Origin: an uncultured Muribaculaceae bacterium
GTDB taxonomy: Bacteria > Bacillota_I > Bacilli_A > RF39 > UBA660
NCBI GenBank assembly: GCA_964630225.1
Contig: CAZVUK010000001.1
Span: 32,088 to 96,087 of the forward strand
Length of the DNA stretch: 64,000 nt
Direction of reading: 5' to 3'
Shown: positions 50,301-56,300 of the stretch, piece after piece
How the letters are laid out: each line of letters begins with the position of its first letter
How positions within the stretch are numbered: the first letter of the stretch is position 1
Made by a program: the position numbers

Positions 50301-53300
50301 AGACACGGTTTCTAAATACTTATAATCTTGTAAAAGCCCTTGTATTTTGATAAAATATTATTGAAAGAGGGCTTTTTATATGTTGATAAATACTAAAGAG
50401 ATGTTACTAAAAGCAAAAGAAGGCAAATATGCTATTCCCCAGTTTAACATCAATAATTTAGAATGGACTAAAAACATTCTAGAAATATGCCAGGAGAAAA
50501 ACGTTCCTGTTATTTTGGGTGTCAGTGAAGGCGCTGCTAAATACATGGGTGGTTACAATGTTGTTTATGCGATGGTTAGTGAGTTAGTTAAGTCGTTGAA
50601 CGTAAGTAGTGGTGTAGCACTTCATCTAGATCATGGAACTAGTTTTGAAAGCTGTAAAAAAGCTATCGATGCTGGTTTTTCATCGGTGATGATCGATGCC
50701 TCTAAATATGAAATAGACGAAAATATCAGAATTACAAAAGAAGTTGTCGATTATGCTCATGAAAAAGGAGTAACAGTCGAAGCGGAAGTGGGACACGTCG
50801 GAGGAAATGAAGACGGAATTATCGGTGGCATTCTAAATGCTAGCTTAGAAGACTGCGTTAAATTGACAAAAGAGACAGGAATTGATTCTCTAGCACCGGC
50901 ATTAGGTAGTGTTCATGGTCTTTATGCTGGAGAGCCAAATTTAGATTTTGAGACTATGTCTAGGATTAATTTAGCCCTTTCTGTTCCACTTGTATTACAT
51001 GGAGGAACTGGTCTTGAAGATGAGCTAATTGATAAAGCAATAGCAAGCGGTATAAGTAAAATAAATATAAATACAGAACTTCAGATAGCGTGGCATAATG
51101 CCGTAGTAGAGTTCGTTAAAACAAGTGACGAATACGACCCACGCAAAGTTATCGGAAGTGGAAAAGATGCTCTAAAAAATGCAGCAGCAGCTAAGATAGA
51201 ACTCTTTTTCAAAAGGAGATAAGATGAAAACATTAGAAATTAAAGGTGGTAAACCATTAACGGGATCAGTCAGAGTAAGTGGCGCTAAAAATAGTGCTGT
51301 TGCCCTGATTCCGGCGTCGCTACTATCAGATGGGGAAGTTACGATATGTAATGTTCCCGATATAACCGATACCGATTCATTAGCTGAAATGCTAGAATTT
51401 CTAGGAGTAAAAATTAAAAGAGCGAGTGAAAGCATCGTGATTGACTCAAGCTCGATTGAAAATAAGTTGATTCCAGAAGAAGTAGCTAAAAAACTACGGG
51501 CTTCATATTATTTTATGGGAGCACTTTTAGGAAAATACGGACATGTTGAAATGTATTTTCCGGGAGGTTGTTCAATTGGTAAAAGACCTATCGATCTTCA
51601 CGTTAAAGGCTTCGAAGCATTAGGGGCTACCGTCGTTCATGAAGATAATAAATATATAATCGATGCTAAAGAGCTTAAGGGAGCTAATATCTATTTAGAT
51701 ATAGCATCGGTTGGGGCAACGATTAATATAATTCTAGCGGCAACTAGAGCCAAAGGTAGAACAGTTATTGAAAATGCTGCTAAAGAACCAGAAATCGTTA
51801 ACATAGCAACCTTTTTAAATAGTATGGGTGCTAAAATCAGTGGCGCTGGAACAAGTGTTATTAAAATTGATGGGGTCGATAAATTAAGTGGTTGTTTCCA
51901 CGAAGTTATACCAGACCGTATCGAAGCTGGAACATTCATTATAATTGCTTCGCTTATCGGTAAAAATGTCAAAATAGACAACATCATACCTGAGCATTTA
52001 GATGCCCTATTTTCCAAATTAACCGATATTGGAGTAGATATGGATTTAGGTCAAGATTACGTCATAATCAACTCTAAAGATGCTTATAAAGCGACAAAAC
52101 TAACAACTCAAGTCTTTCCGGGCTTTCCAACCGATTTACAACAACCTTTTACGGTCCTTTTAACAAAAGCTAAGGGTGAATCAATTGTCGATGAAACGAT
52201 TTGGGAAAACCGTTTTATGCATGTTGAACATCTAAACAAGATGGGAGCTAATATAAGAATCGAAGGAACAAAAGCCATTATAAACGGACCGACAGCACTT
52301 AAGGGAACTGTGGTCGAAGCAACAGACTTAAGAGCAGGAGCTGCTATGGTTGCTGCGGGCCTTGTTGCCGAAGGAACAACGAATATTACAAATATCGAGC
52401 ACATCCTAAGGGGATACGAAAACATCGTATCTAAACTAGAGGGTTTAGGCGCGGTAATATACGAAAAAGATATGTAAAAAATAAAGAGTATTTGCTTTCA
52501 AATACTCTTTTAAAATTTATCTTCATACTCTTTAAAAAAATTATAATAAGTTTTAATGTTTTCGAGCTCTGTCCATTGCTTATCAGTTACAGGAAGAGAA
52601 TCTAAATCATAAATTTTAGCCCCAATTAAACTTAATATAAAAGGGGAATGAGTTGATATTATAAACTGACAATTATAAAATCGCACTGAATCTTCGATAA
52701 ATTGTTTTATTTTAATTTGATTTTCAGCCGACAAACTATTTTCTGGTTCATCGAGGATATAGATACTATTATCTTTTATTTCTCTTTCCCAAAAAGCTAA
52801 AGCTGACTCTCCATTGGATTGCTCGATAATATTGTTGTTAGTAAGTCTTGTTCTGACAAACTTAGACATTGTCATTCTTCGAGAATCACTGCGCTTTTTT
52901 AATTCTTCATAACTATCAAAACTATTCTTAGTATCAAACTTAGCATTCAAATATTCTTCACCAAGCAGCTCTTTGCGGCGATTAACATTTGCGTTAATTG
53001 ATCTAATATCAAGTAAATAATCAAAGACATCATCACTAGTTATTATTTTTATCTCTTCATACTTCTCAAAAGATAATTCATATTTACAATGTTTAGTGTA
53101 TAAATCAAAATAAGTCCCCTTATCAAAATCACTTTTTCTTTCAGCTTTTAATGCTTCGGCAATAAGATTTAAAATAGTCGACTTACCCGACCCGTTTCCC
53201 CCATAAAAAATAGTGATCGGTTCAAAGTTTATCTTCTTCAGTTCCCTGTTAGGAAATATACCAAAGGGATAAACATTATTAAAAATGCGTTTTTTTCTTG

Positions 53301-56300
53301 CTGAAGAGCATCAAACTCATTATCATCATCTAAAAGTTCAAATCTTTTTAAATAAATCATAATATCCCCTAACTACAACTTAATTATATCAAAAGATTCT
53401 TGCAATTATAAGATAATAATGATATATTATAGAGGCATTTATTACTATGATTACTATTAATCATGGCGGAAGGAGTTAAAATGAAAGAGACTAATCTAAA
53501 ATCAATGGACACCGAAGTAACTTGTGCATGTGGAGAAACGTTTACAGTTAAATCAAATAAAGCAGAATTACATATCGAGGTATGTTCTAAATGTCATCCG
53601 TTCTATACAGGAAAACAAAGTAGAGCTAGTAGTGCTGGTCGTGTTGATAAGTTTAACAAAAAGTATGGTTTTGAAAGCCAAGAAAACTAAGAGTTTAAAA
53701 ACTCTTTTTTATTTTGGATAAAGAAGATATAATAAGGGTGGTGATAAATATGAAGTTAGGTTTTGCAAGTGATCATAGGGGTTATCCCTTAAAGAGAAAA
53801 TTGGTCGAGTATTTTTCTAAAGCTGAAATGGATTGTTTTGATGTTGGAGCCTTTAATGAAGAGAAGTCCGATTATCCTCTTTATGCATTTAAACTAGGTG
53901 AAAAAATTACTTCCAAATCATATGATTTTGGCATAGCAATATGTGGAAGTGGAATAGGCATTTCAATTGCTGCTAATAAGGTAAAAGCTGTCAGAGCTGC
54001 CAAGGTGGATAGCGTTGACGATGCTCGTTATGCTAGAATTGACAACGATGCTAACGTAATCGCTTTTGGAGCAGACACAGAGTTTGAAAAGGCGGTCGAC
54101 ATGATACAGACATTTATTAACGTTGAGCGAGAAGATATAGAAAGACACGCACGCCGGATAGCTCAAATAGCTGAATATGAGGAAAATAGAGATGTCCGTT
54201 AAAGTATTTATCTATTTTATCTCAGCAGCAGTGGTCGTTTGGTCATTAGATGCTGTCGATATTAATAGTATCTTTAAAAAGAATAGGTATTGGCAAGCGC
54301 GAGCCTTCTATTTCATTTTAGCTACATCACTAATATATCTTTTAACTAACTTTATTTTCGATTTTTTTCTAAGTAGTAAAATTTGAGGTGAAACATGTAT
54401 AATCGTTATATTTTAAACATTGCCTTAATGGTGGTTACTAGCTTCTTGGTATCGGCCTTTTTAATGCCTTTAATGGTCAAGGTAGCTAATCATATTAAAG
54501 CTATTGATATCCCCCGCAAGAGACACATTCATAAAAAACCGATTGCTAAACTTGGTGGTCTTGGTATCTTCTTGGCTTTTATTTTAGCCTATATGCTCTT
54601 TGGAACAAGTAGTACGAGAATGAACGCGATACTTCTTGGAAGCTTTATTATTATCCTTACTGGTTTAGTTGACGATATTAATTCAATCAGGGCTTCACAT
54701 AAATTAATTGGTCAAATAGTATCAGCACTAATTATAATGTTATACGGAAATATCCTTCTTCAAGATGTGGGATTGTTTGGCTATACTATGCACTTCGGTT
54801 TATGGGCTTATCCCATTACCTTAATATTTATTATAGCGTGCATCAATATAATTAACTTGATCGATGGACTAGATGGTTTAAGCGGTGGAATATCATCGAT
54901 CTTTTATTTAACAATTGGTGTCATTTCGATGATTCAGTTTCGTTTTGGAACGTTAGAATTAATATTAACATTCATTATGCTTGGCGCAACGCTCGGCTTT
55001 CTGACATTTAATTTCTATCCCGCAAAAATCTTTGCCGGTGATGCCGGAGCTATGTTTATGGGCTACATGATTGCCGTTATCTCATTGCTCGGTTTTAAGG
55101 GAGCACTACTTTCCTCTCTTGCTGTACCACTGATGGTATTAGCTATTCCTATTCTCGATACCGGCTTTGCAATTGTAAGACGACTAGTACGTAGGCAACC
55201 AGTATTTGAAGCAGATAAAGATCATTTGCATCACCAATTCTTAAAAATGCATTTTTCTCAAAGGAGAACAGTTCTTACTATATACGCTATCAACATTTTA
55301 TTCTCGATAGCATCTATTTTAATGATTGTTAAAAGTAGAAAACTTGGATTAATTATGTACGTTTTACTGTTTGTAATACTTGTATGGTTAGTAAAATATA
55401 CGAGCATAATATTTCGTAAAGAAGAAGATGACGATGCTTAATTTTATTCTATATGATGACAATATTAGTTTCCTAAAAGAACTGGATAAAATTATAACAA
55501 CTTATCTGATGAACTTAGATATTGAATACGAAATTCATAAATATAATAAATGTGATCAAAATATGAAAAAGATTATCATCGATGATCTTCCTAATAAAAT
55601 ATACTTTTTAGATATAGAAACTAAAGATGAGTCGGGTCTTGATATCTTTAGAATGATAAGAGAGACCCAAGGAGATTGGCACTCTCTTGTTTTAATTGTA
55701 ACTAATCATAATGAATATAAATATGAAGCCCTTGGCAATAGGTTATATTTATTTGATTTCATCAACAAATTAGATGCCTTTAAAGAAAACGTAAGAACAG
55801 CTCTAGATAGGATTGTTAAGATATATGCTACAGATAGTCAGTGTATAAAGATAAAGAAAGATTCTAATCTTTACAAAATATCATTTAGAGACATAGTTAG
55901 CTTAAATAAACAAAAAGGTGTGAACAAGCTAATTATTAAAACAAAGTATGAAGATATAGAAATAAACTCTAGTTTAAAAAATATAGAAAAATTATTAAAC
56001 GATGATTTTTTAAAAGTTAGTTCAAGCAACATAGTAAATAAGATGCATATATATCGTTTTGATAAAATTAATAATAAAATTATATTTGATGATATGAGTG
56101 AAACGGTTGATATATCTAGAAGAAATAGGAAACGGCTGGAAGACTTATGATAATTTCTCATCTAATATCATTGCTAATAGGTCAAGCAGTATTTATCTAT
56201 ATTACCAAAGTGACTCTAAAAGTTAGAATCAGTAATAATAGACTGTTTTTATCATTGTTAATTGCTAGTTTATTATTCTTTATTAGTTATGGAAGAGAAC

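Follow-up and report, generated by a model that had tools for sequence, protein, structure and literature searches.

In a 64,000-nt stretch of DNA from an uncultured Muribaculaceae bacterium (GTDB lineage Bacteria; Bacillota_I; Bacilli_A; RF39; UBA660; contig CAZVUK010000001.1, positions 32,088 to 96,087; hereafter, the window), a gene for an ATP-binding cassette (ABC)-type ATPase lies on the minus strand from 53360 to 52510, with its ATG at 53360, and stands as a monocistronic gene with murA on one side and rpmE on the other. These two lie on the plus strand; the ATPase gene is thus antisense to them, and it has no partner gene, as an earlier reading of this DNA from its letters alone (the sequence-only reading) had described. 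Based on comparison with intact alleles and homologues, the locus probably carries a genuine loss-of-function allele of an ABC-type ATPase gene that stands alone and has long been resident; most likely, it is an ordinary, naturally segregating null allele (a polymorphic pseudogene) of an uncharacterised and very widespread family. The features of the locus are the following.

53361 to 53391, minus strand: extended -10 element TGATATAAT (53391-53383) and ribosome-binding site (RBS) AGGGGA (53370-53365), read from the sequence
53238 to 53360, minus strand: 5′ open reading frame (ORF) fragment of 40 aa in total, with 23 authentic codons followed by out-of-frame codons to a TGA, by translation
53290 to 53296, minus strand: A7 homopolymer (T7 on the plus strand), site of a 1-bp deletion, by alignment with assembly L001
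52510 to 53289, minus strand: -1-frame part that completes the ATPase coding sequence, with residues 25-283 and TAA (52510-52512), by translation
53176 to 53202, minus strand: Walker A (P-loop) GGNGSGKST, by translation, with residues invariant in the family alignments
52804 to 52818, minus strand: ABC signature-like SNGES, residues 182-186, by translation, invariant in the family
52741 to 52764, minus strand: Walker B IYILDEPE, residues 200-207, by translation and family alignment
52642 to 52656, minus strand: H-loop STHSP, residues 236-240, by translation and family alignment
52483 to 52510, minus strand: intrinsic terminator with a stem of 12 bp and then a T run, lying between the ATPase gene and the convergent murA, by terminator scan
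51224 to 52477, plus strand: murA, neighbour
53481 to 53690, plus strand: rpmE, divergent neighbour

Disruption of the reading frame

Minus-strand translation of frame 1 gives MIYLKRFELLDDDNEFDALQQEK, with a TGA stop at codon 41. The gene breaks after codon 23, where the intact allele encodes E22-K23-K24 in an A8 run; a T5 run (53281-53285) lies beyond the A7 run of the window (53290-53296). The alignment with L001 (A7 versus A8) confirms the homopolymer frameshift that the sequence-only reading had proposed. A species-specific A8 run at codons E22-K23-K24 has lost one A; as a result, translation stops at codon 41, with no downstream start to rescue the core. No ATG, GTG or TTG was found in the -1 frame ahead of 52950, which leaves no alternative start; hence, the ATPase core is not translatable on its own. 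The promoter-proximal region (53361-53391) is the same in the intact allele, and its extended -10 element was not listed by a consensus promoter scan because the -35 hexamer is poor.

The deletion was found repeatedly. The protein repaired to A8 is matched in the Logan assembly L001 at 282 of 283 residues, within the same rpiB-rpmE/ATPase/murA order and a 2.5-kb region that is 99.3% identical, the only indel being A8 versus A7. The 146-aa and 40-aa fragments of the broken gene are exactly on record in NCBI and Logan. With the same synteny, A7 was found in six other sequencing runs (L091-L096) and A8 in five (L001 and L097-L100), and when the 12 haplotypes (7 A7, including the window, and 5 A8) are aligned over 7 kb, the tract is the sole indel. 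Two of the A7 runs, SRR8925716 and SRR8925755, are Illumina HiSeq X10 2x150 metagenomes of anaerobic digesters (biogas-plant digestate; PMC7842101); the others belong to the same accession block or to other projects. Additionally, all 62 A/T runs of at least 7 within long ORFs of the window keep those ORFs open, and the ATPase gene is the only coding gap in the window that is not explained by the replication origin or an RNA region. The recurrence of A7 in independent assemblies, its status as the sole indel and the open state of the other runs make a sequencing error very unlikely.

Relationship of the repaired protein to known ATPases

The A8-repaired protein has 283 aa and scores above the Pfam curated cut-offs of both AAA_15 (PF13175; 52.4 versus 32.1 bits) and AAA_21 (PF13304; 47.1 versus 27), in agreement with the AAA15/AAA21-like assignment previously proposed. 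Walker A, the signature, Walker B with its catalytic Glu and the H-loop follow in ABC order on a predicted ABC/SMC-head fold; the Walker A, Walker B and H-loop motifs were all found by translation as the sequence-only reading had given them. In the AlphaFold model (predicted local distance difference test score of 81.8), the head is of the ABC/SMC type and bears a helical insertion of ~65 residues, roughly 109-173. Foldseek returned weak matches (template modelling (TM) scores of 0.34-0.44) to EttA, retron PtuA, OLD, GajA, SMC and Rad50, while in PDB sequence and profile searches only the P-loop and the Walker B-to-H-loop segments aligned. PADLOC matches were partial: PtuA (the best, 61 bits), MAD3, AriA, NsnB, AbiLi and GajA. 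In NCBIfam, the scores for PtuA (NF041760; 35.5 versus a cut-off of 500) and MAD3 (30.7 versus 420) were below threshold.

The protein shares with the AAA_15/AAA_21 group (the SMC/RecF/OLD-like ABC branch) the same Walker A, an SxGE-type signature, Walker B (DEPE) and H-loop, and its predicted fold matches SMC/ABC heads. Nevertheless, the characterised members of this group have 450-660 aa, whereas the window protein has 283 aa, no fused nuclease or partner gene, and an insertion of only ~65 residues. AriA of the PARIS system belongs to the same Pfam families and is among the best PDB profile matches (E 6e-8; ~50 bits in PADLOC), but it has 464 aa, and the window protein aligns to it only at residues 45-72 and 177-243 and not over the full length; furthermore, PARIS carries AriB (DUF4435/TOPRIM) alongside, which was found neither beside the window gene, flanked by murA and rpmE, nor among 138 family neighbours. 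PtuA of Septu and type I-A retrons is the best PADLOC match, and the PtuA proteins of retrons Ec78 and Eco7 are matched by Foldseek; however, PtuA pairs with the HNH nuclease PtuB, while the window gene has no HNH partner, the TM scores are only 0.35-0.43 and the NCBIfam score is far below the cut-off. OLD and Gabija GajA have an ABC ATPase head of the same superfamily followed by a C-terminal TOPRIM domain, whereas the window protein ends at residue 283, just after the ABC head, at about half their length and without a TOPRIM match in the Pfam scan. In ABC transporter nucleotide-binding domains and ABC-F proteins, the signature is LSGGQ instead of SNGES; in the window protein, long helices replace the helical subdomain, the cassette is single and the gene has no neighbouring permease.

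By analogy with other ABC/SMC-type heads, the intact protein would most likely act as two heads that close around two ATP molecules. Each ATP would be enclosed by Walker A from one subunit and SNGES from the other, and the helical insertion of ~65 residues (roughly 109-173) would contact a macromolecular ligand.

Distribution and genomic context of the family

The family comprises at least 550 species-level genome matches in Bacillota, at 47-74% identity, in uncultured Bacilli, Erysipelotrichaceae, Clostridium, Paraclostridium, Lachnospiraceae, Carnobacteriaceae and others. The matches listed are full-length (~283-290 aa), except where the end of a match or contig intervenes. Among 50%-identity clusters, 412 representatives, mostly of 280-310 aa, matched at E ≤ 1e-30, and 1755 did so at E ≤ 1e-10; Pfam recognised no extra domain in ten longer members. 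The source annotations are only "AAA family ATPase" or "predicted ATPase", and a literature search on AAA_15/AAA_21 single-gene defence or COG3910 returned nothing specific.

The genomic context of the family varies by lineage, and we found no conserved housekeeping synteny among the orthologues; such synteny, together with an in-frame tract in the reads, was what the sequence-only reading had held would overturn it, and the A7 tract recurs in independent assemblies. All-against-all clustering of the neighbours within 4 kb in 84 loci gave no recurrent partner, the largest cluster covering 7 loci at varying distances. The 138 immediate neighbours match 142 Pfam families, of which GNAT (5), MatE (3), RVT_1 (3) and NUDIX (3) are the commonest, and none is a TOPRIM, HNH, DUF4435 or nuclease family. 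A PADLOC scan of the same 138 neighbours showed no recurrent defence-gene family beyond three retron reverse transcriptases (RTs). Since contexts vary and no neighbour recurs, the family as a whole lacks a partner, and its lack here is not the result of module decay. The suggestion of an undescribed solo ATPase, which the sequence-only reading had offered as an alternative, fits this large single-gene family. Mobile-element carriage is rare (4 phage records, 4 IMG/VR loci and a few plasmids or megaplasmids); the family is essentially chromosomal.

Two local variants were seen among the homologues. One locus (L016:282-1136), the only one of 80 genome loci to do so, has an in-frame stop (PM*IKLITSDD) where homologues have Glu, a separate inactivation. 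In another lineage (L007:6854-7240; also L008-L010, L021 and L025), the ATPase gene overlaps by ~17 nt a same-strand downstream DUF4186 gene of 118-129 aa, which suggests a local operon in that lineage, a pairing not seen elsewhere in the family.

Residence and probable decay of the gene

A sister taxon (L002) is collinear with the window over LytTR-GT4-rpiB-rpmE-ATPase-murA at ~74% nucleotide identity, and its ATPase gene is intact (288 aa). The amino-acid identity between the two is 74% for the ATPase, compared with 88% for MurA, 86% for L31 and 73% for RpiB, and the ratio of nonsynonymous to synonymous substitution rates of the ATPase between the two taxa is about 0.1, similar to that of neighbouring genes. 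The intact collinear copy and this ratio indicate that the gene was not recently inserted and was under purifying selection in the past; the insertion between murA and rpmE that the sequence-only reading had supposed is therefore not borne out.

Within the window species, the pattern of single-nucleotide polymorphisms (SNPs) differs from that of the flanks: 10 nonsynonymous and 5 synonymous SNPs in the ATPase gene versus 15 and 37 in the flanking genes (two-sided Fisher p = 0.014). The A7 alleles carry R75I, S121L and E185K, at positions that are invariant or nearly so in the family; E185K, within SNGES, occurs in the broken alleles L094 and L095. From these SNPs and substitutions, the gene looks to be under recently relaxed constraint, dispensable and decaying in this species. 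Among the A8 alleles, L097, L098 and L100 carry K141N and L100 also D80Y, again at positions invariant or nearly so in the family, and L100 starts with GTG instead of ATG; some "intact" A8 alleles may be functionally impaired too.

Two results speak for stable inheritance of the deletion. A at 53243 or T at 53176, sites 54 and 121 bp from the tract, is present in each of the 7 A7 alleles and in none of the 5 A8 alleles, and a neighbour-joining tree unites all A7 alleles.

Several observations weigh against a stably inherited null allele. The A7 clade has a bootstrap of 45% and is gone when the ATPase gene is excluded and the flanks alone are used, and the SNP counts are small. The tract state fails the four-gamete test with several flanking SNPs, which may reflect recurrent slippage or recombination; pairs of SNPs also conflict, which implies that recombination or chimeric consensus is present in any case. 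The Logan contigs are per-run consensus assemblies, possibly chimeric, and the tract lengths are those of assembled consensus sequences. None of the 7 A7 alleles has a second frameshift or stop, an observation as compatible with a young or reversible state as with decay. Lastly, the biochemical mechanism proposed above is by analogy only.

Alternative explanations

The alternative that survives best is a contingency locus, in which the A8/A7 run would act as a slipped-strand switch, turning a functional and possibly defence-related ATPase reversibly ON and OFF. As in homopolymer-frameshift pseudogenes and contingency genes, the change is of one base in a 5′-proximal poly(A) tract that is polymorphic among strains. 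Both states are common (7 A7 and 5 A8 assemblies), the tract, close to the 5′ end of the ORF, is the sole indel in 7 kb, its four-gamete conflicts with flanking SNPs fall at alignment columns 515, 529 and 1832, and, as noted, A7 and A8 are not resolved by the flanks alone and no A7 allele is further disabled by a frameshift or stop. However, only two tract lengths, A7 and A8, were found in the 12 haplotypes, and, by the measure of hypermutable A/T tracts, A8 is short; the window has 12 other A8, three T8 and one T9 runs, and those inside ORFs leave them open. Fast switching should erase linkage to the SNPs at 53243 and 53176, and the A7-specific linkage observed there thus disfavours it. Unlike in contingency genes, the OFF alleles bear extra damaging substitutions, such as E185K in SNGES, which point to a long-term rather than a reversible OFF state. 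Recombination, indicated by the SNP-SNP conflicts, would explain the tract conflicts without recurrent slippage, and the homologues have no conserved tract. Phase variation, which the sequence-only reading had raised, is therefore possible but unlikely, and a stable null allele remains the preferred explanation.

A second alternative is that the ~285-aa solo ATPases are an unrecognised immune component, alone or as the missing effector of "orphan" Ec107-like retrons, with the A8/A7 run as a contingency switch that would ease the cost of the gene at low phage pressure. In its favour, several species share no DNA other than the block of ATPase, spacer and RT described below, and no associated effector was found for the Ec107 RT branch by Mestre et al. 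(2020, PMC7736814). We regard this reading as distinctly improbable. An RT plus a non-coding RNA (ncRNA) adjacent to the ATPase gene, as expected of a retron effector, are absent from the window, the gene being flanked there by murA and rpmE, and were found only in a small subclade elsewhere. In that subclade, the association is suggestive; it is not applicable to the window.

The retron loci themselves showed the following. In four related genomes (L003, L012, L015 and L016), the RT of an Ec107-like retron (PADLOC, 417 bits) is preceded, at a distance of 155-221 nt, by an intact family member, and the same adjacency occurs in four metagenome loci (L106, L108, L111 and L112). The block of ATPase, spacer and RT, of ~2.0-2.2 kb, is the only DNA common between species (L003:6001-8028). 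The spacer, of ~200 nt, is highly conserved and has its own -10 element; it shows a compensatory stem change (CTACAC..GTGTAG versus CTACAT..ATGTAG), as expected of a retron ncRNA, and an Rfam search found no known RNA in it. A strict dependence on the ATPase is opposed by two loci with spacer and RT and no ATPase (L107 and L110) and by two others that keep only 3′ ATPase remnants (L109 and L113).

A third alternative is recoding, by which the A7 allele would be expressed through -1 ribosomal frameshifting on A_AAA_AAC, or through transcriptional slippage, to give a low, set level of full-length ATPase. Frame 0 reads gaA AAA AAC, a canonical X_XXY_YYZ slippery heptamer, and a -1 shift at this heptamer gives exactly the family reading frame. 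IS1 uses -1 frameshifting on an A6C-type motif. Nevertheless, the site occurs only in the window species: homologues use AGA or CGN Arg codons without a slippery run, and in all family loci readable at the tract position (~45) the run is absent and a single frame is used. The closest strains have a plain A8 in frame, and the damaging A7 substitutions suggest that the product is not under selection. No significant downstream structure was found (minimum free energy of -14.7 kcal/mol, z = -0.92), the hairpin beginning 16 nt downstream. Since the tract is unique to the species and homologues have no such run, conserved programmed frameshifting is refuted from the comparison of sequences, and recoding of the A7 allele as such is very improbable, though slippage at a low level may occur.

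A further alternative, raised in outline by the sequence-only reading, is a decayed remnant of a two-gene anti-phage module (of the PARIS, Septu, Gabija/OLD or AbiL type, with a TOPRIM, HNH or DUF4435 nuclease) in which the partner was lost and the ATPase was decaying. The partial PADLOC matches, up to 61 bits, are in line with this proposal, and so is the finding that sequence-profile searches and Foldseek place AriA, PtuA, OLD and GajA among the nearest relatives of solved structure. However, these matches are mostly limited to the shared P-loop and Walker B/H-loop motifs, the NCBIfam PtuA and MAD3 scores are below their cut-offs, the intact family is single-domain (~285 aa) and solo across hundreds of species, where no nuclease recurs as a neighbour, and the intact gene of the sister taxon is also alone between rpmE and murA; we can therefore give such a remnant hardly any credence. 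Least credible of all is a sequencing or assembly error hiding a true A8 genome with an intact gene: homopolymers are well-known places for such errors, and there is an A8 allele with 99.3% identity over 2.5 kb, but A7 is repeated in six more independent assemblies, at least two of them from Illumina 2x150 data, the A7 alleles bear their own linked SNPs, and the 64-kb window has no second homopolymer-associated break.

Genomic surroundings

Upstream of rpmE, an L31-Firmicutes leader (RF03156) was found at 53445-53475 on the plus strand, at 33.4 bits versus a cut-off of 33.3. The mechanically assigned start of the rpmE ORF at 53463 is probably wrong, as the RBS GGAAGGAG indicates a start at the ATG of 53481, for a product of 69 aa. 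The promoters of rpmE and of the ATPase gene diverge, and they overlap around a palindrome, TTGCAA (53400-53405). The Rfam search found no known RNA in the ATPase gene.

The guanine-cytosine (GC) skew of the window changes sign at ~8 kb, beside dnaA. A probable replication origin lies at 7599-8064, followed at 8065-16797 by ORFs that we take to be dnaA (449 aa), dnaN, gyrB and gyrA, and then by a bacterial small signal recognition particle RNA (RF00169) at 16800-16890 on the plus strand (63.6 bits). Nearly all genes past 8 kb are on the leading strand; given the flip of the GC skew at this point, the ATPase gene is among the few transcribed head-on to replication. The remaining minus-strand ORFs in this plus-strand, leading-strand block are at 39718-40272, 57513-58082 and 58280-58582.

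Biological significance

For the window, the finding is a strain-level knockout of an accessory gene, which should be annotated as a pseudogene allele and not as two small ORFs. Beyond the window, Ec107-like retron adjacency in a few lineages provides one testable lead to function, and the naturally occurring A7 and A8 alleles provide ready-made, isogenic-like contrasts for the same purpose. The intact gene represents a very large family of minimal ABC-type ATPases, strongly conserved and found in Bacillota of the gut, the rumen and digesters; the family has no assigned function and lacks the nuclease partner that usually guides the annotation of such proteins.

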